Below are positions 5,362 to 44,439 of a DNA stretch of 64,000 bases, piece by piece. The stretch is from IMG/VR virus record IMGVR_UViG_2645727901_000008. One strand, 5' to 3'. How positions within the stretch are numbered: the first letter of the stretch is position 1; each line of letters starts with the position of its first letter. A program made the translations under genes and the position numbers. A model generated the notes under the pieces. The model saw only the letters and a list, made by a program, of their open reading frames with translations, had not been told where the DNA came from and did not search any database. Source of the DNA: a virus (taxonomy: Duplodnaviria > Heunggongvirae > Uroviricota > Caudoviricetes).

Positions 5362-6288
5362 TTAACTAACAATCCAGTCCATAGCAACCATATCCTCTGG
5401 CGCTAAATCAATAGCATGGATTTTCCCATCCCGGATAGTGCGCCAGTGCTTCCTTGATCCGCCTTCGGGCCATACCCATACACCTTCAGACCATGAGGCG
5501 CGACGGCATACCGTTGCATATCCACTTCTGATCTTCTCTCTGGCGGTATGCAGTGACAGATTATCTTTTGGGATTTCCGGTAAAGGATGATGGATTGCCT
5601 GAAACAGCCCCATCTTGGGATGATACCAGCGTTTGTTGCGTGGTTCTGCCTCCGACATAACCTGCTTGAAGGCTTTCTGGAAGGGGGCCAGGGCCACAAT
5701 GGAGCGTCGCGCAAGCAAACCATCTGGAGTTAAAAACTCATGCGTATCGGTGGGAATCCGGAAAGCGTTAACCAGGTTGCGACATTTGGCTTCGGTCAGG
5801 CCACATTTCGCCGCCAGCTGGCGGTAGCCAATGTAGCCTTCCGGAATATTGCCTTTCTTTATTTGCTCGAGTGTTTCAGCGACCATCGATACTTGTGCTG
5901 ATACCTCGGCTACCTGGGCATTTACGGCGTTGATCCGGCGTTCATGCTCAAGATGCATTTGCGCCATTTCAGCCAGGATTTCGGCTTTTGATTTTAACTG
6001 TACCCGGGCATTCTCCAGTTCGCGCCAGCGGTCCACCAGCCGGGCGGTGAATTCGGGAGAGAGCTGCGCGACGACGACAATACTATCGCGCTTGCCTTGC
6101 TCGCCTTCGAAGACGTAATAGCTCGCCGGGCGGCCTGCGGTGGGCTTTTCCTCAATTTGAGGAAAAGATATTACGCCCCGTTCCGCCAGGTGTTCAATGG
6201 TGCGTTTAACGTTATCAGGGCGCTTACCTACCAGTTCCGCGATCTCAATGCTGGTCATTGTCGCTTTTTGAGAGATGGACAGATTCAT
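5362..6288 (-). CDS. Rha-family phage regulatory protein (antirepressor-like) fused in frame to a C-terminal DUF2829-like module
   Basis: N-terminal region matches the Rha-like protein at 43508..44215 (SIEIAELVGKR..DNVKRTIE, VFEGEQGKRDSI, YRIPTDTHEFLTP). The last ~70 aa match the separate 66-aa gene at 43311..43511 (CRR.SW..GVW.WP...DW). Confidence 0.8.
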   Translation of the reverse strand: MNLSISQKATMTSIEIAELVGKRPDNVKRTIEHLAERGVISFPQIEEKPTAGRPASYYVFEGEQGKRDSIVVVAQLSPEFTARLVDRWRELENARVQLKSKAEILAEMAQMHLEHERRINAVNAQVAEVSAQVSMVAETLEQIKKGNIPEGYIGYRQLAAKCGLTEAKCRNLVNAFRIPTDTHEFLTPDGLLARRSIVALAPFQKAFKQVMSEAEPRNKRWYHPKMGLFQAIHHPLPEIPKDNLSLHTAREKIRSGYATVCRRASWSEGVWVWPEGGSRKHWRTIRDGKIHAIDLAPEDMVAMDWIVS

Positions 6289-6503
6289 CAGTGCGCCTCC
6301 ACGCAGTTCATCGGCAGATTCCAGTAATTGAGGATCTCCATCGCATCAAGAGTGAAGCGAGCAGCAAAAATGCAGGGTTCTTCGGGAAGGTATGAGCGCG
6401 CCTCTGCTTCGGTAGCAGCCATGACGCAGATATACAGGTGTTTTTGGCAGGAATAGAAACGCCAGATAAATTCAGAATGAGTTGGGGTAGGGATAGTAGC
6501 CAT
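6288..6503 (-). CDS. small Icd-like protein upstream of the Rha-like gene
   Basis: 71 aa; paralog of 44215..44439 (shared EFIWRF.S.QKH and AATE.EARS); AAGGAGG RBS; stop overlaps Rha start. Confidence 0.6.
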   Translation of the reverse strand: MATIPTPTHSEFIWRFYSCQKHLYICVMAATEAEARSYLPEEPCIFAARFTLDAMEILNYWNLPMNCVEAH

Positions 6504-6700
6504 ATTGGCAGCCTCCTTTGACTAAGTTAAGGAGCTACCGCGTGAGGTTCCAATCTCAATGGCGGTAGCACTGACTGGGTTGGAACTACCGGCGTCAAAG
6601 GGAACCGGCCTGCCTTTCGGCAGCCCAGCCAGCACTACCATTGATCTCTGAGCTAAACGCTACGTATGGCTGTGCGATGGCATGACACAAAAAAAGACGC
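6504..6700 (-). ncRNA. candidate c4-like antisense/leader RNA region upstream of icd-like gene (copy 1)
   Basis: Minus-strand RNA contains CCCUUUGAC (about 6594-6602) complementary to GUCAAAGGAGG covering the icd-like SD (about 6512-6522); also a UAGCUCAG tRNA-like stretch. Confidence 0.3.
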
Positions 6701-6754
6701 TTTCGGCGTCTGTGTCGCCTTTGACATTATCCGGGGTTCCAATCCCGGCACCCG

Positions 6755-6777
6755 TTTTTCTAAGGTGCCGTAGAAAT
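6755..6777. promoter_or_regulatory. TTTCTA-N8-TAGAAA palindromic operator-like element upstream of immI-like copy 1
   Basis: cgTTTTTCTAAggtgccgTAGAAATAtacc; a related inverted arrangement sits upstream of copy 2 at about 44770-44800. Confidence 0.35.
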
Positions 6778-6815
6778 ATACCCCACGATAATGCCAGGGC
6801 GCAACAGTCAGTATT

Positions 6816-6983
6816 TTATGCTTTGGCGGATTTCTTCCGGGCTTGCTTGCAGGCGTAGGCCATTGCTTTAGCTTTCACTTCATCCAGCTTCCCGGTGATC
6901 GCTTCTTTTCCGAGAGTGACAAACCAGTCATAGCAACCGCCAGTGATGTTCTGGATTTGAAAGTTGAGGTAGCGAACGGTCAT
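6816..6983 (-). CDS. small basic protein (55 aa), unknown function
   Basis: ATG preceded by GGGGG; product MTVRYLNFQIQNITGGCYDWFVTLGKEAITGKLDEVKAKAMAYACKQARKKSAKA; below track size cutoff. Confidence 0.3.
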   Translation of the reverse strand: MTVRYLNFQIQNITGGCYDWFVTLGKEAITGKLDEVKAKAMAYACKQARKKSAKA

Positions 6984-7302
6984 TTTGACACCCCCAGCGC
7001 GAGTAAAGAATGCAGATTATCGCGTGAGTGGCGGACAACGAGTGATGGGAAAAGACAGTAGCTGTTCATAGTGTAGTGACTCCTTGCTTTCGGAGCCGCC
7101 ATCGACTGTTCCACGGTCTGGTGGCGGCGCAATAAAGGCTGGAACACCGTGAGTCAACGGGGGCTTTTCAGCCACCTATATTGCACCGCCATAGGTATAG
7201 CGGCGGCAATAATACGAAAAACTAAACAGTTTGTCTCAAAAAGTTGACCGGTGTGCCAATCGGTAGTGAATGTACATCGGAGAAATTTACAATTCAACTT
7301 AA

Positions 7303-7320
7303 AATGTTAGAAAACTAATT
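7303..7320 (+). promoter_or_regulatory. operator-like motif copy (AATGTTAGAAAACTAATT)
   Basis: Member of the dispersed TGTTAGAAA(A/T)(C/T)TAATTT family; abuts the stop of 7315..7893. Confidence 0.4.
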
Positions 7321-7893
7321 TATCAATTCAATCGCCATCTGATACAACGTCATTTCATCGGCATTGTGCCGCATGAAATCTGCTTTTCCGCCTATTTTTC
7401 CGTCAGCATGAACAGGGACCAGCCAGGGATATTGTTCTCGGACCTCGGCTGGCGCTGCGTACTGGTGGTGCCATTTACACAAAGGGAGGACATATTTATG
7501 CGCGTTCTCTGCCGTTCTCCCGAAGATATGGTGCAGGGATACTACTGGGCTATGTTGTCCGTGAATATGGCAGGCAATGCAGGGGAGAGTACCGATAGCG
7601 GTCTGTATCCGGCGTTCATCAGCTGTGAGTGATCTGCCCTTCAGGCCGCGTGACGTGCGTGTTTTTTTGGGCGGAGCGGATACAGCTTTATCTTTTCTCC
7701 GCTGTTCATATTGCTTTGCTTTTTCAATTTTCTTTTGCCGATATTCAGGCGATGCGGCTTTTTCTCTCGCTCGCTGCTGCTGGCGTTGAGCTTGTTGAAG
7801 GCGCTTTGCCCTTTGTTCCTCTCGCCAGGCCGGGTCAGCCAATTTTTGCATGGCTTTTTGTCTCTGTTTCTCCCAATAGCTCTGTTTCTGCAT
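7315..7893 (-). CDS. zinc-finger (Cys/His-rich) phage protein with basic coiled N-terminus, HNH/DUF968-C-terminal-like
   Basis: CIACHIHG...SLHHIFGRT...PLCKWHH cluster resembles the C-terminal Cys/His cluster of 11350..12345; flanked on both sides by operator-like motifs in inverted orientation. Confidence 0.65.
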   Translation of the reverse strand: MQKQSYWEKQRQKAMQKLADPAWREEQRAKRLQQAQRQQQRAREKAASPEYRQKKIEKAKQYEQRRKDKAVSAPPKKTRTSRGLKGRSLTADERRIQTAIGTLPCIACHIHGQHSPVVSLHHIFGRTAENAHKYVLPLCKWHHQYAAPAEVREQYPWLVPVHADGKIGGKADFMRHNADEMTLYQMAIELIN

Positions 7894-7952: not shown

Positions 7953-7972
7953 CAAAATTGATTTTCTAACAC
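7953..7972 (-). promoter_or_regulatory. operator-like motif copy (TGTGTTAGAAAATCAATT on minus strand) with partner half-site TGTTAGA at about 7942
   Basis: About 65 nt upstream of the 7893 start codon; GTTAGA-N16-TCTAAC inverted arrangement. Confidence 0.4.
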
Positions 7973-11252: not shown

Positions 11253-11292
11253 TCAAATCATTTACGCACTCAAAATGCGTTAGAACATTGAT

Positions 11293-11312
11293 TTTAGTTT
11301 TCTAACATATTA
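11293..11312 (-). promoter_or_regulatory. operator-like motif copy (ATGTTAGAAAACTAAAAT on minus strand) with GTTAGAA partner at about 11279
   Basis: Intergenic, between the phosphatase and DUF968-like genes; GTTAGAA-N14-TTCTAAC inverted repeat. Confidence 0.4.
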
Positions 11313-12358: not shown

Positions 12359-12658
12359 ATGAGTCAAGGTAACGGTGGTGGAGCTGCAAAGTGCAGAATC
12401 TCCACTTGTTTGATTAATGGCAGAAAAATAGAACCGTGCGCGGCGCTGGCACAATCTCTGGAGCAGGATGCTGAATACACGACGCGAAAAGGCCTGCTGA
12501 AATACAAAGTCTATAACCATGAATTAATTCATTCACAGGACCTGATCATGCTGCGGTCTGGTGAATTTTCTAAATCGCCTATTCGAGTTTCATTTTGCCC
12601 ATTCTGTGGTGAAAGTCTGAAAACGTGGGAAGCGGAGGCAACCAGTGAGCAAAATTAA
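12359..12658 (+). CDS. small Cys-containing protein, paralog A1 (CPFCGESLKTW family)
   Basis: Shares C-terminal FCPFCGESLKTW and central IEPCA with 14151..14414. Confidence 0.6.
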   Translation: MSQGNGGGAAKCRISTCLINGRKIEPCAALAQSLEQDAEYTTRKGLLKYKVYNHELIHSQDLIMLRSGEFSKSPIRVSFCPFCGESLKTWEAEATSEQN

Positions 12659-13103
12659 CTATCAAGAACTGCGCGAGGCGGCGGAACAGGCAACGCAAGA
12701 TGAATGGGTAGCATATATTTTGCCGGGTCATAACGGCATTTATCCTGCGCGCACGTCTGAAGGTAGGCATTGCGGATACTTTATTGACTGGCCTGGCATT
12801 GATGGACAAAGGAATGCTGGTGCTAATGCCCGTTATATCGCGGCTATCCCACCAAAAGTTGCACTGTCACTCCTAGGCGAAATTAAGCGCCTGGAGGACA
12901 AAAATATTGATGCCATGTGCCAAATTGCAGAGCTGGAGAGCAATCGCGCGGCGCTGGCGGCGGAGCATGGTATTCAGATTGCAATAAATGAACTGCTTGC
13001 TCTGGCCCCGCGTCTGGATAAACGAGCGATGGATGCACTCTCTGTGGCTGTGGAGCACCTGTGTAAACTGATTAAGAAGGAGGCAGTCAGTGAGCAAAAT
13101 TAA
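12645..13103 (+). CDS. Ea22-like early protein, paralog B1
   Basis: GTG start; N-terminus MSKINYQELREAAE shared with 13090..13770 and 14407..14961. Confidence 0.6.
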   Translation: MSKINYQELREAAEQATQDEWVAYILPGHNGIYPARTSEGRHCGYFIDWPGIDGQRNAGANARYIAAIPPKVALSLLGEIKRLEDKNIDAMCQIAELESNRAALAAEHGIQIAINELLALAPRLDKRAMDALSVAVEHLCKLIKKEAVSEQN

Positions 13104-13770
13104 TTACCAGGCACTGCGTGAGGCGGCAGAAAAAGCACTACATGGTGAATGGGGTTACGAGGCAGGGGCAATCTGGAATACCTGTGATAGCGGCTATGTT
13201 CAGCACATGGCAGCGGTCGAGACTGGCGATGATGTTAGCGATGAAGAGCATATGAGCAATATGCGTTTTATCACGCTCGCCACGCCAACTGTTGTTCTTG
13301 GATTGCTTGATGAGCTTTCTGAAGCTAAAGCTGCCGAAGAGAATGAGTCCAGTTGTGCTAACAGCGTTATCGACATCGCTATCAACTGGCAGATGCGAGC
13401 CAAAGATGCAGAAGCCAAGCTGGAAGCCGCAGAGAAGCGCATTGCGGAACTGGAAACAAAAGCGAACCAGCAAACCAGAATAAGCGATAAGAATCTGACC
13501 AGGCTGATTGCCGATGCTGACAAAATGCTGGGTATGCGTTCGCCGGTTATAGACAGCGAGTGGTGGACGCTTTTACGGCAGTTCCTGATTGAACTTCAGG
13601 ATCGCCGCAGAAACAGCATTTCTGAATCTGGAATCCGTGCTGAAACCCTGAATGATTTAATCCGACATATTGACAGAAACCTGGATATTGACGCGATGAA
13701 ATCGCCGTTTGAACTGTCATCTGAAATTGTGGATTACGTTAATAGGCAACTGCACAAGGAGAATTCGTAA
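13090..13770 (+). CDS. Ea22-like early protein, paralog B2
   Basis: N-terminus MSKINYQALREAAE; internal NQQTRISDKNLTRLIADADKMLG segment repeated downstream at about 13990. Confidence 0.6.
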   Translation: MSKINYQALREAAEKALHGEWGYEAGAIWNTCDSGYVQHMAAVETGDDVSDEEHMSNMRFITLATPTVVLGLLDELSEAKAAEENESSCANSVIDIAINWQMRAKDAEAKLEAAEKRIAELETKANQQTRISDKNLTRLIADADKMLGMRSPVIDSEWWTLLRQFLIELQDRRRNSISESGIRAETLNDLIRHIDRNLDIDAMKSPFELSSEIVDYVNRQLHKENS

Positions 13771-13946
13771 TGCAGGTGGCATTTGTTGGCCTGTTACCGC
13801 ATCCGATCCGCCTTTGGGCGGATATGTCACTCATAAAAACGCATTTTTTTACTACTGATGGCGGCATTCCGGCACCAAAGCGCCGTCATACCGGTATTGC
13901 AGCGGCACGACGAGCAGCAAAGAGACGCAGGAGAGCAAAGCGATGA
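13770..13946 (+). CDS. small Arg/Lys-rich protein (58 aa)
   Basis: AAGGAG RBS; ATG overlaps upstream stop (TAATG); C-terminus RRAAKRRRRAKR; below track cutoff. Confidence 0.35.
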   Translation: MQVAFVGLLPHPIRLWADMSLIKTHFFTTDGGIPAPKRRHTGIAAARRAAKRRRRAKR

Positions 13947-13989
13947 AAAACCGTAAAGCAAATAAAGTGGCAAAACAGGAGGCGGCGCA

Positions 13990-14154
13990 GTGAACCAGCA
14001 AACCAGAATAAGCGATAAGAGCCTGACCAGACTGATTGCCGATGCGGACAAGGTGCTGGAGCGGAACACACCCGTTGCCGATGAGGAATGGTGGCAGGAT
14101 TTCCGGGCTGCAATGCTGGAACTTCAGGAACGTCGTCGGGAGGAGTTGAAGTGA
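13990..14154 (+). CDS. truncated Ea22-like paralog fragment (54 aa, GTG start)
   Basis: AGGAGG RBS 5 nt before GTG; product matches the central part of 13090..13770; stop overlaps the GTG start of the next gene. Confidence 0.4.
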   Translation: MNQQTRISDKSLTRLIADADKVLERNTPVADEEWWQDFRAAMLELQERRREELK

Positions 14155-14414
14155 GTGAATTAAAGTGTCGAATTAATGGCAATCAGATAGAACCGTGTGC
14201 GGTACTGGCAAAAGCACTCGAATATGGAAATCCAGCCTTTAAGAGTAAAGGCATATTTATCCCGGAACGCGTGAATATAAATACCGGCGAGCCAGGCTTA
14301 GACATTGCTCAAATTCACTCCGGCCAATATGTCGGTCGTGGTGTTGCCATGTGTTTTTGCCCGTTCTGTGGTGAAAGTCTGAAAACATGGAAAAAGGAGG
14401 CAACCAGTGAGTGA
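14151..14414 (+). CDS. small Cys-containing protein, paralog A2 (CPFCGESLKTW family)
   Basis: Start moved to GTG (VSELKCRINGN) with GGGAGGAG RBS; C-terminus matches 12359..12658. Confidence 0.6.
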   Translation: MSELKCRINGNQIEPCAVLAKALEYGNPAFKSKGIFIPERVNINTGEPGLDIAQIHSGQYVGRGVAMCFCPFCGESLKTWKKEATSE

Positions 14415-14961
14415 AGTTAACTATCAGGCACTGCGTGAGGTGGCAGAGGCCGCGAAGGGGGATACGACGTGGCAGAACCTACAGGCTTTTCATGCTGCGG
14501 CAACGCTGGAGGTTGTGCAGGCGTTGCTGGATGAAAACGAAAGACTGTGTCGCGATCTGATAGCTCGTAATGGTGAGATTGAAGGGCTTCGGGAGTGGGC
14601 AGAAGAACTGGAGGCACGGGAAGTGGCTTTGCCAGTAGCGTCATGCATTGTTGAAGATGGATGCATGTGTGTTGATGGGTTCAGTGAGTATGTAGGTCAC
14701 TCGCTACCTGATGGAATGCATGAGCTTTATGCTGCCCCACCAGCGTCGGTAGTGCCGGAAGGACTAGTTAAAGCAGTGCGTTTCTATGAACAGGTAAAGT
14801 GTGAGAATCCGCCAGTCGAAACCGGAGCATGGAAAGACGCTATTGACTGGGTGCTCAAAGAGGCTTGCCAGGCTGTAAACATTGGCATCAAAGGAGAGAG
14901 ATATGGCAACTTTAACAAAAAAAGAACAAGCATGGTTGAACGAATTACAGGACGTTCTTGA
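14407..14961 (+). CDS. Ea22-like early protein, paralog B3
   Basis: GTG start; N-terminus SEVNYQALREVAE. Confidence 0.6.
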   Translation: MSEVNYQALREVAEAAKGDTTWQNLQAFHAAATLEVVQALLDENERLCRDLIARNGEIEGLREWAEELEAREVALPVASCIVEDGCMCVDGFSEYVGHSLPDGMHELYAAPPASVVPEGLVKAVRFYEQVKCENPPVETGAWKDAIDWVLKEACQAVNIGIKGERYGNFNKKRTSMVERITGRS

Positions 14962-15166
14962 TCGCTGTCCGTCACCGAAAAAAATAGGCTTTTACACCAT
15001 TGGCGATAAAAACATTTACCTGTATGACCTACGCCGCATGGATGTAATCATGGAGGCTCTTGATAATCGTTCGTCGATGGATTGGTGTGCTGCTGTCCAT
15101 GATATGAATGCCGGATTTGATGAAACGATTTTGTTCCCCTCATCAGTTGAAAGCACTGCGGGTTAA
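14903..15166 (+). CDS. hypothetical protein
   Basis: Start moved to MATLTKKEQ with AAGGAGAG RBS; overlaps the 3' end of the previous gene in another frame. Confidence 0.4.
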   Translation: MATLTKKEQAWLNELQDVLDRCPSPKKIGFYTIGDKNIYLYDLRRMDVIMEALDNRSSMDWCAAVHDMNAGFDETILFPSSVESTAG

Positions 15167-15176
15167 GGAGTAACAC

Positions 15177-15560
15177 ATGACCACTATTACCAAAGAACGT
15201 ATTGAATTGTTCATTAAAAATCCGCTTGAAAACGGACTTACCCGTGGCGAACAAATGGAACTGGCACGAATTGCACTGGCCTCGCTTGAGGCAGAGCCAG
15301 TTGGTGCATTCCACATTGCTGAACAGCAAGTTGACGGCACAAGTGACTACATCAAGGATGGGGAGTGGCCTATTGATAATGGGACAATTGAAGTCTACGC
15401 CGCCCCGCCAGTACCGGTAGTACCTGCTGCATTACCTGAGAACGACGATGAGGACGGGCAGGACATTGATTATCTTGAGCCATCTGAAGTTTACGCGCTT
15501 GGGCGAACAGCTGGCTGGAACGCCTGCCGTGCTGCCATGCTTAAGGGAGATAAATCATGA
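15177..15560 (+). CDS. hypothetical phage protein
   Basis: 127 aa; AAGGAG RBS. Confidence 0.55.
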   Translation: MTTITKERIELFIKNPLENGLTRGEQMELARIALASLEAEPVGAFHIAEQQVDGTSDYIKDGEWPIDNGTIEVYAAPPVPVVPAALPENDDEDGQDIDYLEPSEVYALGRTAGWNACRAAMLKGDKS

Positions 15561-15928
15561 TTAATCGTACCAAGCTGGAGCACATCCTCGAATATGCCAG
15601 ACAGCAGAAGCGCTTTGGTCAGCATTGCAAAATTCCGCCAGGAGATATGGTTGAAATCGTGGAGATTGCCATGCGTAAGGCTGGCAACTATCCGGTAACT
15701 CCGGATAGTTGGATAAGCTGTAGTGATCGAATGCCTGAAAAGGGCCAGAACGTGCTTATTTCGGTGAATTTCGATAGCTCTCTGGTTGAACCGCTAATAT
15801 GCTCCGCACGCTATACCGGAAGCACCTTTCGGCGCGGAGATGCAACGATTAAGCCGGGTAATGGTATTGAGCAAGCAACTCACTGGATTCCGCTACCGGA
15901 ACCGCCGCAGGAGGTTAACCGTGGCTAA
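15557..15928 (+). CDS. DUF551-like phage protein
   Basis: 123 aa; WISCSDRMPE...THWIPLPEPP pattern typical of small DUF551 proteins (family assignment by memory). Confidence 0.5.
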   Translation: MINRTKLEHILEYARQQKRFGQHCKIPPGDMVEIVEIAMRKAGNYPVTPDSWISCSDRMPEKGQNVLISVNFDSSLVEPLICSARYTGSTFRRGDATIKPGNGIEQATHWIPLPEPPQEVNRG

Positions 15929-33835: not shown

Positions 33836-33855
33836 TTAGTTTTCTAACATATTTT
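33836..33855 (-). promoter_or_regulatory. operator-like motif copy (AAATATGTTAGAAAACTAAT on minus strand)
   Basis: About 30-45 nt upstream of the 33809 start; identical core to the copy at 11293-11312. Confidence 0.4.
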
Positions 33856-35801: not shown

Positions 35802-38800
35802 TTAGGCCGCATCGGCGATTATTTTACGCAATTCATCTACCGAGTAACGCGTAGATACCATCCATGCAGGACGGTCAAAGTTCACATCAGCAACCGGGTT
35901 TGCTTCAAAATTCCAGAAACGCCCGCCAATCTTCTTAATCGCGTCTTTGGCGTTCCGTATTGTCGAGGAACCAGGTTGGTCGGCAATGAGATAAACCGCA
36001 CCGACGTCCTCGCTGACACTCCACCAGCGCCCGCGAACACGCGCCTTAGCGCGAATCGGCTTATCATTAACCACAATGATATAGTCATCATTCGCCGCTT
36101 CATCAGCTCTGGCTTCAGCCACTGCCGCCTGCTCTTCTCTTTTGCTTTCAGCCTGTTCAAGCCTTTCCGCGATCTCTGATTCGGTGGCCCCGCCGTTTTT
36201 CAGCGATACATAGTCTTGCCACGTTGCTGATTTGAGCGCATCCGGCAACTCATTCACATAGTCACCGTCTTTCAACTCACGGGCGCGGCGGGTAGCCATT
36301 TCTACCAGGCGATTAACAGAAACAGCATCAGCAAAATCGTCCTTACTAATGTGTTTTTCATCAAATGCATTGATGACAGCCCCCACCTTAATCCACTGCG
36401 CTGCTGGCGAATCCAGAGGATTATCGGCCTGAACAATGGCTAATTTCGCTCCATCGACACCATTATTAGCCAGCTGCTCCAATGCCGACCAGCCATCGGC
36501 ATCGCTGAGTGATTTATATTGCTCAAACAATGCATCGCGCCAGGCCACCAGCGCAGCTCGTGTTTTCTCAATTTTCGCCGTAATTTTCGCGGCCTTCACC
36601 TGATTAAACATCCGTTCAATGTCATCAGTGTTGCTAAAGGCTTTCATCCTGCCCTGGAATAAACGGTATGCCACCACGGTCTTCCAGAAAGATTCCAGCC
36701 CTTCTCCGGACGGTTTACGGAACAGGCTAAGAATATCTTCAGAAGTAACTTTATTAAGTGAGCGACCGGACAAACCACGCCCTGCCATCCAGTTTTCAAA
36801 CTCCTGGGAAACATCATCCATCGTGGCCTGTGACCCCCATGCCTGCATTCCCTGGATGTAATCATATCCATACAATGCCTGGAGGAATCCCTCGCCGTCC
36901 ACGACATTCAGCGGGTTATCACTGGCTTGTATTTTTGCCACTTCACGCTTCAGCGCCTCATCGTTGCCATCAGGGTAAATCCACCGCTCAGGCGCTATAT
37001 CCGATGCTCGCCCGATTTTTTGACCTATTACGCCATCATAAGCCGATGACAGTGCAATCTGACCATCATCGGTGCGATAAGCCCAGTATTTAATAGCTGA
37101 ACCACCGCCCCATACTCTACTAGGCTTCCCGGCAGTGACATTCATTACCCCATTGCGAATAGCATCATAGAACTGATCGCGCGTAAGTGTTGTTGATAGC
37201 TGGTGGCATTGAACACCACGTGCAGCTGTTTCACGCGATTCTGCAACTCCCTCTTCAAAGGTTACCGATTCAATTATCAGGTTAAAGGGCAAAAATAATG
37301 CCGTCCCCGGAGAACGAGAGTAACGACTAGCCACATCCAGCCAGGATATGCGGCACGTACACCCGCCCCTTTCCGCATCAATGGCGGTAACACGAACAAT
37401 TGCTGTCGTATTGTGATTCTCATCGATGATCGCGCGATAATGGCTGCCCTTGTGCAACAAGATATTTTTCTCAGTGCGTACATACTCCTGTGGGTTCTGC
37501 AATACATCGGCATCAAGCTCCAGAACCCCGGCTTTAATCGCACGTTCCAGATCACCACGAGAACGTTTCATAACGGTGTCAGCGTCTTTAGCTCTGGTGA
37601 TCGCAAAGCGTAGCTCCCGCACACGTTTTCTGTAGTCTCGCAACTGTTCCAGAACATATTTCTGCCCGTTCCTGTTCGTCCCCGCTTTAATCAGGTCGTC
37701 AAGATTGCGCTGGTAATGCTCTACCTGCTCCATCGCGCTTTTCAGTTCTGTCTCCATCATGCCGATATCTTTCCCGGCAGCATTCGCCGCTTTCAGGTAG
37801 TTATCGAGAGCATTATTGGCTTCGCGTAGGGCTTTCAGTTTCAGACGTTCTTCACGCTCTTGCGCCTGACGACTCATGATTGCACGGCGTTCTTCCGGAT
37901 TTGCCGCCAGCATAATGGCGCGTTCATCTGCGTCATCCGCATCACCATTGGCGATCTCTGACATGTCGGAGGTCATCACCATATTGATCCAGTCCTTCTT
38001 ACGTTTCAGCGTATCCAGACGGAAGTCATCAAATGTGCCTTTGCCACAATAGTAGTGAACATTGACCTTTTCTTGTGGTGAGCCTACCCGAGCGCCGCGC
38101 CCATTACGTTGGTCGATACTGGCAGGAGTCCAGGGTAGTGTCAGATGGTGGATATCGGTTGTCCCGATGTGCAAGTTAATACCTACTTCAGCCTTCTTGT
38201 TACAGATTATGATGCGCGTGCGACCTTCGTTATAGTCGGCGGCAATACCTTCCATGCCCTCAAGGCCAGCATCATTTTTAGCTGAGAGATAATCCTCATA
38301 TTGGGCAAGTTTGCTGTAGTAGGTTTCCCATGCACCTTCTTTGTATTCACCGTTTTTATTTGGCGTAGGTTCAGTCGGCTTATTCACCTTCTTCAGCTTG
38401 ACGCCGCCAGCCTGGCTAACTGTCGTCGCATTGATAATGCCTATCTCCTGCTCCGGCATTTGCAGTGCACTGGCAATAATACGGCGCAGCTTCTGGTGCT
38501 GGGCTTTTTCATCAATGAAGACGATTTGTTTACCGTTCTTCAGACCTTCACGAAGGTTTTCGATCAGCGCGGCATACTTCGGCGGGATGGGGTGTGATAC
38601 CTGCTGCATATCAATACCGGCAGCCGCAATGGCCTTCAGTATTTCAGCTTCCAGTTCAATGCCAGCACGTATTTCAACATGCGACGGATGTTCGCTAAAG
38701 GTGGTCTTCACTACCTTGCTGGCACGCGTACTGACCAGCCCACCAGCGCCATCTTCTTCGGCCTCGTCTACATCATCTGCCACTTTACCGCCAGCTACTT

Positions 38801-41800
38801 TTGGCAGGGCATCAGCAATAGCTTTTACCTTGTCTGCAAGCTCAACGGGGAACTGGAATGTAATCGCACTGGCATACAGATCAGGATCTATAGCAACCTT
38901 ATCCATGTCGCGGATGATGGAGAAGATGAAATCATCCGGTTTTTCGTTTGTGATATGCCCGTTTTCATCGACCGTCAGCGCATCTTTACTACTTAACTCC
39001 TGTGCACGCTTACGAAGTTCTTCGTAAATGGCCTCTTGCTCTCCTGTCATCGGGATCTGCAAGGTATTCTCGACAATATCAGGGATTTTTACCGTCGCCC
39101 CGACGTCCGCAGCAGTCTTCAGAGTAGTCCAGCGATGGAAAATACCACGCAGACCATCCAGGTTCTGGAAGCCCACCAGTCCCTGCTTCTCTTCCACCTC
39201 ACCGGAAATTTTCTGAACCTGAACTGTGGCTGTTTTACCGAACACGCGAACGAAATCATCCGGCGTAACAATACCCATGCGCATCCACTCTTCCTGCGGA
39301 ATGACAGTAGACAGCATGTTGAAAGCATCAATCGGGCTGTTCACCAGCGGTGTTGCCGTCAGCATAACCACACCACGCCCGTTGTTGCGTTTCATCATGT
39401 ACGCAGCTTTTACAGCCATGTCGCGGGCCATTTTGGATACTGCCGGGTTAGGCAAATATGCCAGTTGCCCCGCTTCGCGCCCGGCGCTAAAGGAGTTGCG
39501 GTAGTTATGCCCTTCGTCGGCAATTACGCTATCGAAGTTCATATCCTCAAAGTACGGGATATTCTGCTTCTTCGTTGTACCGGTATTTGCGGCCTGGTCC
39601 TTAATCTTGTTCTTCTTCTGCGCGTCACGGTGTTTGCCAGATGCCAGGTCAAGACGCCCCATTTCCACAGCATTAAAGACCGCTTGCTGTGAGTTTTCCT
39701 CAATGGTTTCTTCTCGTAGCGGGATAGACGCGAATTGCTCTTTTGTCATGATGACCGTTCGCCAATTTGACGACGGGATCATGTTCATGCGCTGAACGAT
39801 AACGGCGCTGGCGGACTCTTTCACAACATTTCTGGTAAGAGCCTGCCCGTTACTGTCGAGGCGTGGTTCGCCATTTTCATCAAGCACCGGCGCGGTCAGA
39901 ATATTTCCGCTGTCATCACGAACTTCATCCAAACCGATAAACATCATATTGGCGAAGGCATCAGAACTGTAGAAACTCTGTGCCTCGTGATACCAGTTCT
40001 GATAAACCGCCTTCGGAACAACAATACACGTGCGTTTAGTGCGACCTGTTTCGAAGTTATACGCCTCAAGCGCAAGCGCGGTCGTGGTTTTACCCAGCCC
40101 GGTGCCAAATCCCATGATGCCGCGCCCATCTTCTGATAAGCGACGAACTTCTTCATTCTGATAAGTCAGAGGAATGCGCTTCCCACTAATCCCCTCCAGG
40201 CCAAGCGGTGCGTCAGAATGCGTAAACGGGATGAAGCCATTAAATGCGTCGTTATAGTCGCGGGCTATCTGATCAGCCTGCGGGTGAGTGCGTAACCAGT
40301 CGTTGAAGCTAATTTCCAGTTGAGCAATCTTATCCAGGTACTCGTTAGCGTTCTGCCCACGCGGTTTAATGCCGTTCAGGTAGTTTTCTAACTGGTTCAG
40401 GAAGCCGTCTTTATTGTTGGCCTTCTTGAACTCATTCCCGTTTTTGCCGTTTACGGTTCGTAGTTGATAGCCAGTAAATACCCCGTCCTTACCTTCGTAA
40501 TCGTCCGGAGATACCAGAATGCCGTCCTCAACCTTAAGGTCGGGTTCTGTATACTTAAACTCGTCATAGCCCTGCTCTGCCAGGAACTCTTTTATCAAGC
40601 GGCGATCCAGCCAGCGGGCGTTCAGATTAACGGTGACTTTATTTAGTGGCGTGAAAATGCGTTTCTCTTCGATTTTCGCCAACTGACGCTCAAAGTTCGC
40701 TTTCTGCTCACCTGTTGACGCATCACGCCAGCCCACCAGCAATGCTGTTTTGGTTGCAATATCGCCGCTGGTGGCGCGGTCCATCGGCAGCAGGCAGCCA
40801 TACCCATCAATAGCGATATCATCAAATTTCGCCAGGTATTCCAGAGCAGCATCGTCGTCTCCTGGCAGTTCGCCAGCAAACGCCTCACGAAAATCGTCCA
40901 GTGTGATTGGATTAAGTGCCACGTCACTGAAAAGGTGGGTTACAACTTGTTCCGGGCGTGTAAAGTCAATACCGGCAGCACCATCCGTTACATCAAGTCG
41001 TCCAGCAAGGAGGTCAGAAGCAGAGCCGTCCTGTTTCACGTTGCCAGTGAAAGTCATCCAGTTTTTAGCGCCAGCTTCAGCAATCCCATTCAGCTTAATC
41101 GCGTGCGGCGGACCATACTTCGCAATTTCGGCTTCCGCCAGGCGCGCGGCATCAGCAAGTACATCATCAACATTTTCCCCCAGATTACGCTTATCAAGCG
41201 CCTTGTTGATCAACTGCCCTATCAGTGCGCCGCGCATAACGCGTTCTCTGTCTTTTTCTCTCTGCTTGCCAGCAAAGCGAATCATTGCCGCTACTTCATC
41301 ACTGATAACCGATGGATAGTCGGACGCGATCGCCGATATCTGGTCCCATGACAACGCCAGAATGCCATTTGTTGACTGAAACGCGATCTGCAGATCACCA
41401 AACGTCGTAACACCATATCGATTTACATCAAGCGCGGAGGATTTGGTTGTCGCGTCCTTGACCCATTTCAGACCATCAAACTCATGCCAGATGCCGCCTA
41501 CAAGGCGTTTATCGCCCACTTTCGCGCCCTGCCATGCCTGAGTAGTTACGCCAAGCAAATCCCAATTAATGCGGCTTTCAAAGCGGCGCGATAGAGCGGT
41601 TTTCATCGACTCATTGGATACACGACCGTCCTTTTTCACCACCAGGGTATTGCGGAAGCTGGTACGCTCCATATCGCCGTAAACAAATCGCTTCCCTTCG
41701 GTTGTAAACCATTTTCCTTTGAGGAAGGTATCCCAAAGGACGTTTGCCGATTTGAGCGTTGCATCATCCGTGTCGGGGATCATCTCCAGGAAGGTTTCCG

Positions 41801-42641
41801 GGTGTTTACGCAATACCCATACGTCCACCACGGTATCTGTACCGGATTCGCTGAACGTACCAGAAGGCATACGATGTGCGCCCAAAAATTCCGCTTTACG
41901 GCTGACTTTATCGCGCAATTTTTTGTATTTCGTACCATCGGTCATGCCATTCGGCACCACCAATACAATTAGTCCACCAGGTTTAACCTTGTCGATCGTG
42001 CGCAACACAAAGTAATTGCCAACGTTCTTCTCGTTTGCATATGCCGGATCAAGCCCGGCAACGCCGGAACGCCCTTCACCAAACGGTACGTTACCAACAG
42101 CGTGGTCATACATTGCGTCTTTCGCCGCCAGCGCCTCAAACGCCCCGATATTCACATCGTCTTCCGGGTGCAAAAGCTGGTTTATTCGACCGGAAATCGG
42201 AGACAGTTCGGCGCTGGTCATTATCATGCCCTGCCGTTTTGTCTCCTGGAAAATACCTGTGCCCGCTGATGGTTCCAGTACGTGCCCACCATCAATACCG
42301 TAGTCAGCAAACAGATCCCATATACCTTCAGCCATAAACTGTGGCGTGTAGTATTCGTATTGGCTGCCCTCACCATCTGTCAGGCCGCCTTCACCGGTAT
42401 ACCCGGCAAGAATCTGACGTTGTTCGTCAGTTAATTTCGCCCCATCGAAGCCGGGCGGAAGGGAATTAAGAAGATTTACTGCGGCATTGTTTGCTGCCCG
42501 GCGTGTTTTCTGAATACTGACGCCATCGGCTTTCCTGACGCCAAAGGTCGCAACAGCACGTAATTTATGCAACCGACTAACAATTTCAATCAGTTCGCCT
42601 AAGCTGGAGGCTTCACTGATTGAATGAAGTAGTTTGTCCAA
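35802..42641 (-). CDS. darB: giant DarB-like protein: N-terminal SAM-dependent DNA methyltransferase domain plus SF2 (DExH) helicase domain
   Basis: 2279 aa; MTase motif I VLEPSAGTGIF and NVPFG; helicase Walker A GFGTGLGKTT, motif II VIADEGHNYRN, motif VI RNGRGARVG; size and architecture match P1 DarB. Confidence 0.8.
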   Translation of the reverse strand: MDKLLHSISEASSLGELIEIVSRLHKLRAVATFGVRKADGVSIQKTRRAANNAAVNLLNSLPPGFDGAKLTDEQRQILAGYTGEGGLTDGEGSQYEYYTPQFMAEGIWDLFADYGIDGGHVLEPSAGTGIFQETKRQGMIMTSAELSPISGRINQLLHPEDDVNIGAFEALAAKDAMYDHAVGNVPFGEGRSGVAGLDPAYANEKNVGNYFVLRTIDKVKPGGLIVLVVPNGMTDGTKYKKLRDKVSRKAEFLGAHRMPSGTFSESGTDTVVDVWVLRKHPETFLEMIPDTDDATLKSANVLWDTFLKGKWFTTEGKRFVYGDMERTSFRNTLVVKKDGRVSNESMKTALSRRFESRINWDLLGVTTQAWQGAKVGDKRLVGGIWHEFDGLKWVKDATTKSSALDVNRYGVTTFGDLQIAFQSTNGILALSWDQISAIASDYPSVISDEVAAMIRFAGKQREKDRERVMRGALIGQLINKALDKRNLGENVDDVLADAARLAEAEIAKYGPPHAIKLNGIAEAGAKNWMTFTGNVKQDGSASDLLAGRLDVTDGAAGIDFTRPEQVVTHLFSDVALNPITLDDFREAFAGELPGDDDAALEYLAKFDDIAIDGYGCLLPMDRATSGDIATKTALLVGWRDASTGEQKANFERQLAKIEEKRIFTPLNKVTVNLNARWLDRRLIKEFLAEQGYDEFKYTEPDLKVEDGILVSPDDYEGKDGVFTGYQLRTVNGKNGNEFKKANNKDGFLNQLENYLNGIKPRGQNANEYLDKIAQLEISFNDWLRTHPQADQIARDYNDAFNGFIPFTHSDAPLGLEGISGKRIPLTYQNEEVRRLSEDGRGIMGFGTGLGKTTTALALEAYNFETGRTKRTCIVVPKAVYQNWYHEAQSFYSSDAFANMMFIGLDEVRDDSGNILTAPVLDENGEPRLDSNGQALTRNVVKESASAVIVQRMNMIPSSNWRTVIMTKEQFASIPLREETIEENSQQAVFNAVEMGRLDLASGKHRDAQKKNKIKDQAANTGTTKKQNIPYFEDMNFDSVIADEGHNYRNSFSAGREAGQLAYLPNPAVSKMARDMAVKAAYMMKRNNGRGVVMLTATPLVNSPIDAFNMLSTVIPQEEWMRMGIVTPDDFVRVFGKTATVQVQKISGEVEEKQGLVGFQNLDGLRGIFHRWTTLKTAADVGATVKIPDIVENTLQIPMTGEQEAIYEELRKRAQELSSKDALTVDENGHITNEKPDDFIFSIIRDMDKVAIDPDLYASAITFQFPVELADKVKAIADALPKVAGGKVADDVDEAEEDGAGGLVSTRASKVVKTTFSEHPSHVEIRAGIELEAEILKAIAAAGIDMQQVSHPIPPKYAALIENLREGLKNGKQIVFIDEKAQHQKLRRIIASALQMPEQEIGIINATTVSQAGGVKLKKVNKPTEPTPNKNGEYKEGAWETYYSKLAQYEDYLSAKNDAGLEGMEGIAADYNEGRTRIIICNKKAEVGINLHIGTTDIHHLTLPWTPASIDQRNGRGARVGSPQEKVNVHYYCGKGTFDDFRLDTLKRKKDWINMVMTSDMSEIANGDADDADERAIMLAANPEERRAIMSRQAQEREERLKLKALREANNALDNYLKAANAAGKDIGMMETELKSAMEQVEHYQRNLDDLIKAGTNRNGQKYVLEQLRDYRKRVRELRFAITRAKDADTVMKRSRGDLERAIKAGVLELDADVLQNPQEYVRTEKNILLHKGSHYRAIIDENHNTTAIVRVTAIDAERGGCTCRISWLDVASRYSRSPGTALFLPFNLIIESVTFEEGVAESRETAARGVQCHQLSTTLTRDQFYDAIRNGVMNVTAGKPSRVWGGGSAIKYWAYRTDDGQIALSSAYDGVIGQKIGRASDIAPERWIYPDGNDEALKREVAKIQASDNPLNVVDGEGFLQALYGYDYIQGMQAWGSQATMDDVSQEFENWMAGRGLSGRSLNKVTSEDILSLFRKPSGEGLESFWKTVVAYRLFQGRMKAFSNTDDIERMFNQVKAAKITAKIEKTRAALVAWRDALFEQYKSLSDADGWSALEQLANNGVDGAKLAIVQADNPLDSPAAQWIKVGAVINAFDEKHISKDDFADAVSVNRLVEMATRRARELKDGDYVNELPDALKSATWQDYVSLKNGGATESEIAERLEQAESKREEQAAVAEARADEAANDDYIIVVNDKPIRAKARVRGRWWSVSEDVGAVYLIADQPGSSTIRNAKDAIKKIGGRFWNFEANPVADVNFDRPAWMVSTRYSVDELRKIIADAA

Positions 42642-42792
42642 AGGATTTCCCCCTCTAAACCGTAAAAAATTCCGCTATGCGGTACGGTTGAGAGGGTATG
42701 GAGAATGTTATTTTCAGGGGGACGATACTACCGTCAAAATCACATACTCCCCATAGTTTGCCTACTTATTAACCCATGACCGGGAGAAAAAT

Positions 42793-43278
42793 ATGGCAAA
42801 CATTGAACCTCGCTGGCTAATTGAAGCCCGTAAGCACATTGGCCTGACTGAAATAAAAGGCGCTAAACACAACCCTGAAATCGTTCAGTTCTGGCGCGAC
42901 ATCAAGCGCGGCGGAATTAAAGACGATGAAACGCCGTGGTGCGCAGCATTTGTCGGTGCAATGCTGGAACGTGTAGGCATCCGCTCAACAAGATTTGAGT
43001 CGGCAAAATCCTATCTGGATTGGGGCGAGAAATTAGATACACCGGCATACGGATGTATCGTTGTATTTACCCGCGTAGGCGGTGGGCACGTAGGCTTCGT
43101 TGTCGGACGCCGTGCCAATGGCGATCTGCTTGTCCTGGGTGGGAACCAGGGGGATGCTGTTAATATTCGCGCATTCCCAACATCAAGAGTGTCTGGCTAT
43201 CGCTGGCCTGCTGGCGAACCACGCAATACCGCTCTGTTACCAGTCGGAGACGCAGCAACCTCAACTAATGAGGCATGA
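42793..43278 (+). CDS. cell-wall hydrolase-like protein (CHAP / NlpC-P60-like, TIGR02594-type)
   Basis: Cys...His pattern (ETPWCAAFVGA ... GGGHVGFVV); GGAG-type RBS. Confidence 0.55.
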   Translation: MANIEPRWLIEARKHIGLTEIKGAKHNPEIVQFWRDIKRGGIKDDETPWCAAFVGAMLERVGIRSTRFESAKSYLDWGEKLDTPAYGCIVVFTRVGGGHVGFVVGRRANGDLLVLGGNQGDAVNIRAFPTSRVSGYRWPAGEPRNTALLPVGDAATSTNEA

Positions 43279-43281
43279 AAA

Positions 43282-43305
43282 AAGCCCCGGCCAGGCCGGG
43301 GCATC
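43282..43305 (-). terminator. rho-independent terminator
   Basis: GCCCCGGCC-loop-GGCCGGGGC followed on the minus strand by TTTTTT. Confidence 0.5.
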
Positions 43306-43310
43306 ACGCT

Positions 43311-43511
43311 TCAATTCACGATCCAATCATTACCGACTATATCAGCCGTCGATAAATCAACTTCCCGGATCTGGAGTCCATTAATACAAAACCATCCGGT
43401 AGTAGAGTAATTATCAGGCCAGGCCCATACACCAACACTCCATGCTTTACGGCGGCACACTTCAGCCTGTCCTTCCCTGATTTTTTTTACCGCCTGCATG
43501 ATGTCCATCAC
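43311..43511 (-). CDS. DUF2829-like small protein
   Basis: 66 aa; start overlaps the Rha stop (ATGA); CRRKAWSVGVWAWP...GNDWIV. Confidence 0.6.
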   Translation of the reverse strand: MMDIMQAVKKIREGQAEVCRRKAWSVGVWAWPDNYSTTGWFCINGLQIREVDLSTADIVGNDWIVN

Positions 43512-44215
43512 TCACCTCCCCAACCGATCACCTGGAATTGCCCCATTTTGGGGTGATACCAGCGTTTTCCTCGGTGTTCAGCCTCCGACATCATCCGGTT
43601 AAAAGCATTCATGAAGGGAGATAAGGCCACGATGGAACGACGCGACAATACCCCCTCTGGAGTTAAAAACTCATGTGTATCGGTGGGGATCCGGTAAGCG
43701 TTAACCAGGTTGCGACATTTGGCTTCGGTCAGGCCGCATTTTGCCGCCAGCTGGCGGTAGCCAATGTAACCTTCCGGCATGTTGCCCTTCTTGATTTGCT
43801 CGACGGTTTCTACCACCTGGCTAACCTTTGACTCAACAACATGAAGCCGCTTTTGCTGCTGAACTGCATTTGCAGCCATTGCGGCGATCATCTCTATTTC
43901 GGTCAACGGCTGGCGTGCTTGTTCTTCCAGTTCGCGCCAGCGGTCCACCAGCCGGGCGGTGAATTCGGGAGAGAGCTGCGCGACGACGATAATGCTATCG
44001 CGCTTGCCTTGCTCGCCTTCGAAGACGTAAGCCTCAACACTACGTCGTAGTCCTAAGTTATTGATTTTTTCGAAAACCTCAATTTGAGGACGAACAATAA
44101 CGCCACCTTTGTCTAATGTCTCAATAGTGCGTTTCACATTGTCATGACGTTTTCCCACCAGCTCCGCGATCTCAATGCTGGTCATTGATGGCTTTTCGAG
44201 AATGCAGATATCCAT
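43508..44215 (-). CDS. Rha-family phage regulatory protein (antirepressor-like), copy 2
   Basis: 235 aa; shares segments of 90-98% nucleotide identity with 5362..6288. Confidence 0.8.
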   Translation of the reverse strand: MDICILEKPSMTSIEIAELVGKRHDNVKRTIETLDKGGVIVRPQIEVFEKINNLGLRRSVEAYVFEGEQGKRDSIIVVAQLSPEFTARLVDRWRELEEQARQPLTEIEMIAAMAANAVQQQKRLHVVESKVSQVVETVEQIKKGNMPEGYIGYRQLAAKCGLTEAKCRNLVNAYRIPTDTHEFLTPEGVLSRRSIVALSPFMNAFNRMMSEAEHRGKRWYHPKMGQFQVIGWGGE

Positions 44216-44439
44216 CAGTGAGCCTCCGCAATGCCGGGATTGGTAATATTGCGATACCAGGGATTGGTGTTTGGTTGTGGGGAAGTGGAGAAACGACCAG
44301 TGAGAACGCCATACTGATCAGGGATCAGAGAACGGGCTTCTTTTTCAGTTGCGGCAATTGCGAAGTGATCGCAGTGTTTTTGCAGGGAGTGAAAACGCCA
44401 GATGAATTCTGGACGTGAGCAAGGATTGGCATTAACCAT
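44215..44439 (-). CDS. small Icd-like protein, copy 2
   Basis: 74 aa; paralog of 6288..6503; stop overlaps Rha start. Confidence 0.6.
   Translation of the reverse strand: MVNANPCSRPEFIWRFHSLQKHCDHFAIAATEKEARSLIPDQYGVLTGRFSTSPQPNTNPWYRNITNPGIAEAH

Follow-up and report, generated by a model that had tools for sequence, protein, structure and literature searches.

Two probable C4-gated immI-type modules with Rha-like cargo and a minimal Tad2-fold partner in a D6-like phage-plasmid

The 64,000-nucleotide (nt) stretch of the IMG/VR record IMGVR_UViG_2645727901_000008 (Caudoviricetes), which was analysed whole and is termed the window below, in all likelihood represents a D6-like phage-plasmid of the P1 family that carries two complete post-transcriptional switches of the immI type, inherited with the D6 lineage. 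This reading is based on the anatomy of the two modules, the complementarity of their RNA elements, the covariation of these elements across relatives and an arrangement that is conserved in related elements. The window is collinear with Escherichia phage D6 (NC_050154/MF356679), corresponding to D6 70661 through the origin to 41394, in blocks of 88-98% nt identity with a few segments replaced. Each of the two modules, here called A and B, combines a leader, a C4 antisense RNA and its target sites with an icd-like open reading frame (ORF), a gene for a Rha-like winged-helix protein (Rha-A and Rha-B) and a minimal domain with the Tad2 fold. Their parts are as follows.

Module A
7305-7321 (-): operator-like 17-mer AAATTAGTTTTCTAACA, upstream of the module and overlapping the ref stop codon
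6816-6983 (-): small ORF of 55 amino acids (aa), phrog_7786, the counterpart of D6 orf85, with the operator-like site on one side and the leader on the other
6775-6804 (-): putative weak promoter-like site TTGCGC-18-TATATT, directly upstream of the leader
6690-6768 (-): leader, matching Rfam isrK RF01394 with 62.7 bits against a gathering score of 50
6736-6742 (-): a1, TTGGAAC, in a hairpin loop of the folded leader
6718-6725 (-): b1, GTCAAAGG, likewise in a hairpin loop
6695-6711 (-): intrinsic terminator of the leader (terminator scan), 3' of a1/b1
6558-6645 (-): C4 antisense RNA, Rfam RF01695, 77.1 bits against a gathering score of 45
6594-6601 (-): b' loop of C4-A, CCTTTGAC
6580-6586 (-): a' stretch of C4-A, GTTCCAA
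6512-6553 (-): target region, with a2 at 6547-6553 and b2 at 6515-6522
6288-6503 (-): icd-like ORF, 71 aa, NCBIfam NF033153 (49.5 bits, cutoff 25), phrog_1426
5362-6288 (-): Rha-like winged-helix protein, 308 aa, Phage_pRha; phrog_63, phrog_7385
5365-5559 (-): segment encoding the fused C-terminal minimal Tad2-fold domain of Rha-A
5332-5356 (-): GC-rich hairpin GCCCCGG...CCGGGGC at the module end, paralogous to the module B terminator
6014-6118: high-identity block 1, 98% identical to 43926-44030, with a 64-nt exact run inside
5740-5860: high-identity block 2, about 93% identical to 43673-43793, with a 40-nt exact run

Module B
44783-44799 (+): operator-like 17-mer AAATTAATTTTCTAACA, upstream of the module, bordering on and overlapping the -35 hexamer of the promoter-like site at 44757-44784
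44757-44784 (-): promoter-like site TTGCCG-16-TATGAT
44687-44715 (-): promoter-like site TTGATC-17-TATATT
44635-44693 (-): leader, matching Rfam c4-a1b1 RF03163 (44641-44693) with 51.5 bits against a gathering score of 46.7
44649-44655 (-): a1, TTAGCAG
44635-44641 (-): b1, GTTAGTG
44487-44572 (-): C4 antisense RNA, Rfam RF01695, 70 bits against a gathering score of 45
44523-44529 (-): b' of C4-B, CACTAAC
44510-44516 (-): a' of C4-B, CTGCTAA
44448-44486 (-): target region, with a2 at 44480-44486 and b2 at 44451-44457
44215-44439 (-): icd-like ORF, 74 aa, NF033153 (40 bits, cutoff 25), with a P1/P7-like N-terminal part
43508-44215 (-): Rha/Roi-like winged-helix protein, 235 aa, Phage_pRha
43311-43508 (-): 65-aa ORF with the minimal Tad2 fold, its ATG overlapping the rha stop (TGATG)
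43284-43302 (-): intrinsic terminator at the module end (terminator scan, fold)

An earlier note on this DNA had described two paralogous gene pairs in direct orientation about 38 kb apart, and the comparison of the two modules bears this out: the ORFs are intact in both, lie on the minus strand in the same orientation and are separated by 37.9 kb from start to start. The two stretches that it had put at about 110 bp with roughly 98% identity and about 150 bp with roughly 90% were measured as 105 nt at 98% (block 1) and about 120 nt at about 93% (block 2). The longest exact runs common to both modules are of 64, 40 and 36 nt. Further repeated segments are found at 5593-5884/43526-43817 (292 nt, 82%, with a core at about 5740-5860 of 90-96%), 6194-6300/44121-44227 (107 nt, 78%) and 5332-5411/43281-43360 (80 nt, 74%, taking in the terminator hairpin). 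At the protein level, Rha-A and Rha-B are 67% identical over 237 aa (BLASTP, E=1e-109) and Icd-A and Icd-B 45% identical over 51 aa (E=2e-15); hence, the paralogy is gene-wide. As the last 65 aa of Rha-A are homologous to the separate 65-aa ORF of module B (45%, E=5e-19), it reaches as far as 43311. That the similarity might be limited to a short motif is rejected by these comparisons of the Rha, Icd and C-terminal proteins. Beyond the gene pairs, a separate C4 antisense RNA gene with target sites lies upstream in each module (6558-6768; 44487-44693).

The DNA similarity between A and B is strongly mosaic, with about 40-55% identity in the leader and most of icd, followed by the 98% block, a stretch of about 44%, the block of about 93% and a final part of 72-80%. 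The identity drops sharply to about 44% at the 3' edge of block 1, which marks a mosaic boundary there. The winged-helix segment of window module A is nearer to that of D6 module B than to that of D6 module A. Such sharp-edged blocks point to repeated exchange, which may have occurred between the modules or with a wider pool of Rha/Roi genes.

The core of each module is an RNA-based recognition code comprised of an a and a b element: code A consists of a TTGGAAC and b GTCAAAGG, and code B of a TTAGCAG and b GTTAGTG. Both C4 RNAs adopt the canonical fold, with minimum free energies (MFE) of -46.5 kcal/mol (z = -5.0) for C4-A and -45.4 kcal/mol (z = -5.3) for C4-B. The a1/a'/a2 and b1/b'/b2 elements are exactly complementary over 7-8 nt at all four sites of both modules. 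Exact loop/target matching finds no cross-matches between the modules, neither code being present in the leader of the other; whole-sequence RNAduplex energies of each C4 against the leaders were uninformative, since they ignore intramolecular structure, and exact matching was used in their place. For comparison, only two to three bases per site separate the P1 code (a TTGACAG, b GTTAGTG) from the P7 code (a TTAGCAG, b GATTGTG), and P1/P7 heteroimmunity rests on these differences. The logic of the window codes matches that of P1/P7 heteroimmunity. As codes A and B differ from each other far more than those of P1 and P7, the two gates should be orthogonal, with each C4 predicted to gate only its own module.

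These codes vary extensively between related elements. Alignment with P1, P7 and D6 reveals the module B code to be a hybrid, with an a site of the P7 type and a b site of the P1 type. Both D6 codes differ from those of the window: D6 A has a TTGAGAC and b GCAAAAGG, and D6 B has a TTGACAG and b ACTTACG. The a/b combination is different in each of P1, P7, window B and D6 B in a four-way alignment, and likewise in each of window A, D6 A and the second locus of the P1-like element RCS47; in all aligned elements the three copies of every code change together. A search of IMG/VR in which the conserved C4 stems were fixed and the loops could vary recovered at least 120 B-type loci spread over at least 12 code combinations and 71 A-type loci with four code combinations. 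Four matching targets are present in 112/112 B-type loci with full flanks, among the matches listed, and in 67/68 A-type loci with full flanks; hence, with both types together (at least 191 loci), all four matching targets are carried by 179 of the 180 full-flank loci among the matches listed. This covariation of targets and C4 strongly supports, at the level of sequence, the predicted pairing between the RNAs and the view that the codes are under diversifying selection.

The same covariation bears on whether one of the modules might be a decaying duplicate that has lost its function. A defective 59.5-kb relative with a truncated module A rha pseudogene offers a precedent for such decay. In the window, however, the ORFs of both modules are all intact and both C4 RNAs score above threshold, while the target sites covary perfectly with the C4 loops in relatives and both modules are kept in about 100 plasmids. 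We accordingly regard decay of either module as very improbable indeed, and return to the reading of both as complete immI-type switches.

The closest counterpart of this arrangement is D6 itself: D6 orf17-19 and orf82-83 correspond to the two modules in position (darB-hydrolase-module B-repL; pmgF-module A-ref) and in gene order, with 93-95% nt identity. The part of the Rha-like genes that encodes the N-terminal winged helix is replaced between D6 and the window. The D6 record annotates both modules as 'inhibition of cell division' together with 'putative anti-repressor', leaves the C4 RNAs unannotated and lists orf17 as hypothetical. Flanking module B in the window are a 2279-aa DarB-like helicase/methyltransferase (35802-42641, minus strand) and, after it, a 161-aa CHAP-domain peptidoglycan hydrolase (42793-43278, plus strand), which is convergent with the module.

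Similar modules have been described in several systems, such as: the immI locus of P1/P7 (c4-icd-ant1/2), whose leader order a1-b1-c4-a2-b2-icd is that of the window modules; the isrK-orf45-anrP locus of the Salmonella prophage Gifsy-1; the second loci of the P1-like elements RCS47 and JL22; and the P4 CI RNA/seqA-seqC immunity system. Module B is about 91% nt identical to P1/P7 c4-icd over window 44328-44700, and both have an operator or operator-like site and two promoters or promoter-like sites upstream and a downstream gene that is coupled to icd or, in the window, predicted to be so. Its two promoter-like sites align with P1 P2c4 (P51a) and P1c4 (P51b), respectively, and its operator-like site is placed analogously to P1 Op51/P51a; P51a is controlled by C1 in P1, and P51b is the constitutive c4 promoter. 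The window differs from P1/P7 in having two modules rather than one, and in its cargo: a Rha-type protein and a Tad2-fold domain stand where P1/P7 have Ant1/Ant2, which contain an ANT domain. Module A resembles the Gifsy-1 locus in that its leader matches Rfam isrK (that of module B matches the equivalent c4-a1b1 model instead) and ends in an intrinsic terminator requiring read-through, after which come a C4/STnc1160-like RNA, a small ORF and a regulator gene whose translation is predicted to be coupled to that of the ORF. Unlike the Gifsy-1 locus, it lies in a plasmid prophage. In Gifsy-1 the short terminated IsrK RNA activates translation of the read-through mRNA (PMC4825925). RCS47 and JL22 have an extra A-type c4-icd module besides the canonical immI, with a leader 88.7% nt identical to that of module A; loci of this type, and the icd-ant homologues in pSvP1 RD-1, were noted before (PMC6906374). 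The second locus of RCS47 is situated between pacB and c1 and has a P1-type operator and a 371-aa ORF6N plus ANT protein as cargo. In P4 the same logic of the RNA family is seen, with a processed stem-loop RNA that pairs up- and downstream of itself (PMC4825925); P4, however, uses the CI RNA to terminate transcription of its replication genes and has neither icd nor an antirepressor as cargo.

The earlier note had further held that two such modules in one element are unusual, and here the record of relatives speaks differently: D6 has both at the same positions, and full-length module A is present in 92 and module B in 110 plasmids of PLSDB. Second immI-like copies have also been mentioned in the literature (PMC6799933), and a survey of P1-like plasmids reported extra icd-ant homologues and called ImmI a variable hot spot (PMC6906374). 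Among the matches listed, both C4 types co-occur on 15/38 IMG/VR contigs of at least 75 kb that bear either type, and some contigs have 3-4 C4 genes of the B type. The 97-kb contig 2703718869_000013 has four B-type C4 genes (loci L022, L057, L105 and L127) and the 103-kb contig 651053023_000001 three (loci L019, L081 and L110), with all codes different within each; some relatives thus stack more immI-type gates than D6. Duplicated immI-like modules are, therefore, a real, documented and already known property of D6-like phage-plasmids. Since the two modules belong to the published D6 genome plan, the finding as first stated adds little; what is added here is their full anatomy, the orthogonal and combinatorially diverse C4 codes, a cargo without an Ant-type domain and the conserved Tad2-fold partner.

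An asymmetric 17-bp motif, AAATTRRTTTTCTAACA, is dispersed over the window in 10 copies, where 0.04 would be expected, at the following sites.

7305-7321: site 1
7955-7971: site 2
11291-11307: site 3
22226-22242: site 4
23626-23642: site 5
28057-28073: site 6
32582-32598: site 7
33833-33849: site 8
44783-44799: site 9
45990-46006: site 10

These sites are found upstream of module A, module B, ref, repL and other early-looking genes, and the P1 C1 operator as at Op51, once reverse-complemented, is similar to the motif. They probably constitute the operator set of a D6-type C1 repressor, comparable to the scattered C1 operators of P1. The promoter-like site of module A (6775-6804) is retained in the second locus of RCS47 by alignment, where a P1-type C1 operator is present just upstream. 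By analogy with P1/P7 and with Gifsy-1 IsrK biology, the modules may be under C1 control.

These elements suggest the following course of regulation. The leader would be transcribed from the operator-flanked promoter and from a second promoter, and would hold the decoys a1/b1, the C4 RNA and the targets a2/b2. C4 would then pair with a2 through a', which is single-stranded, and with b2 through the loop of its b' hairpin. In the annotation of the P1 record, C4 is cut from the leader and has two short elements that pair with a2 and b2; this pairing blocks the icd ribosome-binding site and the coupled downstream gene, and a1/b1 are upstream copies of the targets. In the window, b2 overlaps the Shine-Dalgarno sequence AGGAGG of icd in module A (6512-6517) and the icd ribosome-binding site GTGAGG in module B (44448-44453), and for this reason we propose that C4 pairing stops icd translation. 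The icd stop overlaps the rha start as TGATG in both modules (at 6288 in A and at 44215 in B), and in module B the rha stop likewise overlaps the start of the 65-aa ORF; these overlaps suggest translational coupling of the downstream genes to icd, by which the whole payload would be silent in a lysogen. Release may come about in more than one way: through the absence of C4, as on fresh infection; through titration of C4, if leader transcription is raised after loss of C1 repression; and, in module A, also through titration by an IsrK-like short leader RNA. Each module would thereby deliver Icd, a Rha-type winged-helix protein and a minimal Tad2-fold domain. In P1, transcription of ant needs icd translation via Rho-dependent polarity. 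Processing of the RNA and control by translation and Rho-dependent polarity are likely to apply to the window modules as well, by analogy with P1/P7 and Gifsy-1 IsrK.

Several observations weigh against reading both modules as complete switches of the immI type. The promoter-like sites of module A score below the threshold of the consensus scan, and its operator-like site is about 500 nt from the leader. An intrinsic terminator lies between a1/b1 and c4 in module A, so that c4 synthesis would need read-through, as in Gifsy-1 IsrK. As for the cargo, the ANT/KilAC domain (PF03374) is not found in Rha-A or Rha-B at E <= 0.01, and the full-length structural model of Rha-A is of moderate quality (predicted local distance difference test, pLDDT, 65) with matches to generic winged-helix regulators only.

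Rha-B matches Pfam Phage_pRha (PF09669) with 36.8 bits against a cutoff of 29.9; Rha-A, with 29.6 bits, falls just under it, yet is 67% identical to Rha-B. A protein identical to Rha-B is present on 85 public contigs under the name 'Rha family transcriptional regulator'; all 120 proteins listed in the homologue search with Rha-B are more than 91% identical, making them unsuited to a deep alignment. The Rha-A model has an N-terminal winged helix, a long helix and a second winged-helix-like unit, and Foldseek recovers with it generic winged-helix matches of the MarR/ArsR type (E > 0.04) and nothing diagnostic of antirepressors. PF03374, on the other hand, matches P1 Ant1, P1 KilA and the second Ant of RCS47 at 1e-30 to 1e-32. 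The label 'antirepressor' is thus unproven: it derives from gene position and database labels (phrog_63) rather than from homology to a characterised Ant.

It is quite possible, if somewhat short of probable, that the modules are generic C4-gated early-expression cassettes, in which the Rha-like cargo are DNA-binding regulators of the Rha/Roi type and the term 'immI' describes the gate and not the cargo. The lack of the domain that P1 Ant1, KilA and the second Ant of RCS47 possess, the two winged-helix-like units of the model with their weak MarR/ArsR-type matches, and the annotation of the nearest phage homologues as Roi/DNA-binding protein all accord with this, as does the shuffling of leaders and cargos among relatives. 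Within icd, the leader brings along the first nine codons and the cargo all those that follow. In the IMG/VR loci the A-leader is followed by RhaA-like (17), RCS47-Ant-like (14) or Ant1-like (1) cargo, and the B-leader, among the matches listed, by Ant1-like (48), RhaB-like (15), RCS47-Ant-like (12) or, once, a RhaA-like hybrid. Against it, rha sits exactly where P1 has ant, PHROG phrog_63 carries an anti-repressor label, and Gifsy-1 AnrP, from the analogous isrK locus, activates prophage genes (PMC4825925). We consider the Rha-like proteins most likely to be pro-lytic regulators; that they are true antirepressors of C1 is conceivable, and we lean rather against it.

The second conserved component of the cargo is the minimal Tad2-fold domain. 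The AlphaFold model of the 65-aa ORF has a pLDDT of 91.7, and the first 13 matches in the Protein Data Bank (PDB) are all Tad2 (probability 1.0, query-normalised TM score 0.72-0.78), with the next at <= 0.4. The predicted fold comprises the alpha1 helix of Tad2, a five-stranded antiparallel sheet and alpha3, with helix alpha2 absent; in the models it is the fold of SPO1 Tad2 and ModTad2 (DUF2829, PF11195) for both the 65-aa ORF and the Rha-A C-terminus. The 65-aa ORF is some 20-25 residues shorter than SPO1 Tad2 (89 aa), and is always coupled to a Rha-like protein. A word index yields three relatives of it and an exhaustive HMMER search seven; with so few, the alignment behind the model is shallow, though the pLDDT is high. 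The window sequences themselves score below the 25-bit cutoff of Pfam Tad2-like (PF11195), with 15 bits for the 65-aa ORF and 8.5 for the Rha-A C-terminus, while 5/7 members of the small family match it (best E = 3.6e-9), and weak PDB profile matches include AcrIIA7 and SptTad2. Alignments, read by eye, indicate that 3/6 of the ligand contacts of SPO1 Tad2 (W25, N26, W73, S76, T78 and D79) are kept in the 65-aa ORF (W23, S24, V50, S53, A55 and D56) and 2/6 in Rha-A (W, S, I, A, E and D). The domain is present with 29/30 Rha-type cargos and with 0/75 other cargos in IMG/VR, among the matches listed, and this co-occurrence makes it an obligate partner of the Rha-like protein.

At 20167-20844 on the minus strand the window also encodes a protein of 225 aa whose C-terminal domain is a canonical Tad2-like/DUF2829 one (Pfam, 80 bits). 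It corresponds to D6 orf114 and has a dUTPase-like ORF on one side and an isaA-like gene on the other. This protein is a candidate for a second, orthodox sponge of the Thoeris signal. By hhalign, the small family and this canonical DUF2829 domain match weakly (probability 13%, E = 0.002).

Were the Tad2-fold partner itself a sponge for an immune signal, the modules would also serve as anti-defence cassettes that act early, set free when a new host is infected and C4 is absent. The confident model with its uniformly Tad2 matches, the Pfam matches of the family, the exclusive association with Rha-type cargos and the retention of the alpha1, beta1-beta5 and alpha3 elements of the Tad2 pocket are in line with such a role. 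Several features, however, run counter to it: the loss of contacts noted above in B and A includes W73, replaced by V or I, and N26, replaced by S; the dimerisation helix alpha2 is missing; the window sequence is under the Pfam cutoff (15 versus 25 bits); a canonical Tad2-like protein is already encoded at 20167-20844; and strict coupling to the Rha-like protein equally fits a regulatory or oligomerisation role. We consider a sponge function of this partner unlikely.

The earlier note had also suggested that the direct repeats could mediate deletion or inversion of the intervening DNA. Inversion is impossible with repeats in direct orientation, which can only lead to deletion or resolution into two circles; deletion stands in part, in that the expected junction is seen in two metagenome contigs and, across the matching PLSDB records and the best places listed in E. 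coli genomes, in no complete replicon. Exchange between the modules would give circles of about 38 and 54 kb. The former arc carries ref, early genes, phd/doc, cre/lox, c1, pacAB, lpa, the tRNAs and darB, and the latter repL, the structural genes, repA and par. With c1, pacAB and phd/doc on the lost arc, the deletion product should be derepressed, unpackageable and exposed to Doc (post-segregational killing).

Of the two contigs, L009 (10.7 kb, IMG/VR 3300013958) leads from repL, c4-B and icd-B through a B/A/B/A mosaic rha to the genes downstream of module A, with the crossover of the hybrid inside block 1 (6014-6118), and L198 (2.7 kb, ENA ERZ27235558, named k119) has a matching junction with a single crossover in block 2 (hybrid P0123/L198). 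They may be rare true recombinants or assembly chimeras. In PLSDB, 0/594 matching records cover 80% of the junction query in one place, and in complete E. coli genomes (822 matching records) the best places listed all lack the icd-B end of the query. A 59.5-kb relative (L199, NZ_JBSWAN010000004.1), considered as a candidate for the deletion, was rejected, having an ordinary module A context with a truncated rha. The plasmid, D6-like but reduced in length, comes from a urinary isolate of E. coli, and its module A rha is a C-terminally truncated pseudogene; as the junction query matches it at one place, instead of the two seen in two-module relatives, module B is probably absent and the plasmid probably a defective derivative without it.

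That the repeats matter mainly as recombination substrates, with a RecA-dependent crossover between the 98% and 93% blocks deleting the 38-kb arc, is in our estimate quite improbable. The exact runs of 64, 40 and 36 nt are long enough for rare RecA-dependent exchange, Ref is encoded by the element, and the crossovers of the two independent contigs fall inside both high-identity blocks. The junction was not found, however, across the 594 PLSDB and, at the best places listed, the 822 E. coli records; the arc that would be lost also carries cre/lox and lpa besides c1, pacAB and phd/doc; the two contigs could be chimeras; and direct repeats cannot invert. Two complete immI-type switches remain the reading that we prefer.

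Elsewhere in the window, three segments are without a megablast match to D6 (1624-5078, 12666-17156 and 17502-18631) and hence represent regions of replacement or insertion relative to it. Of these, 1624-5078 adjoins module A on its downstream side, at the position of simB/orf80 in D6; L009 and L198 likewise lack the larger part of it (about 2610-5028). At 12593-14470, in the early region where D6 has ead/Ea22-like genes, paralogous segments of the repeat families D2, D5 and D8 (69-90% identity) are arranged in tandem; a conserved GGAGGCAACCAGTGAGCAAAATTAAC junction stands at their start, and they may thus represent a row of small modular genes. Four tRNA genes (Rfam) are clustered on the minus strand at 29512-31360 (29512-29584, 31115-31187, 31195-31278 and 31287-31360); the D6 annotation of the matching region has three. 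A 216-nt inverted repeat (94%; 55643-55858/58815-59030) flanks a tail-fibre gene segment of about 3 kb, which is the Cin-invertible C segment; within it, 56775-58898 is oriented opposite to the D6 reference.

Taken more broadly, the c4-icd leader might be a portable, code-addressable gate, and the two orthogonal gates of D6-like phage-plasmids might release, each solely in the absence of its own C4, a Rha-type regulator together with its obligate Tad2-fold partner, which could be an immune-signal sponge of a new subfamily or a ligand sensor for the regulator, making the modules anti-defence or defence-sensing cassettes in addition to lysis-lysogeny switches; this proposal is speculative and we hold it to be a long shot. 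The Rha-type cargo that travels with a minimal Tad2-fold domain is a testable lead linking lysis-lysogeny control to anti-defence. Across P1/D6-like elements the recognition codes are shuffled combinatorially, with at least 12 combinations of the B type and four of the A type, and with near-perfect covariation of their targets. The P1/D6-like group thus provides orthogonal RNA gates in a natural library, and in it the evolution of heteroimmunity can be studied cleanly.

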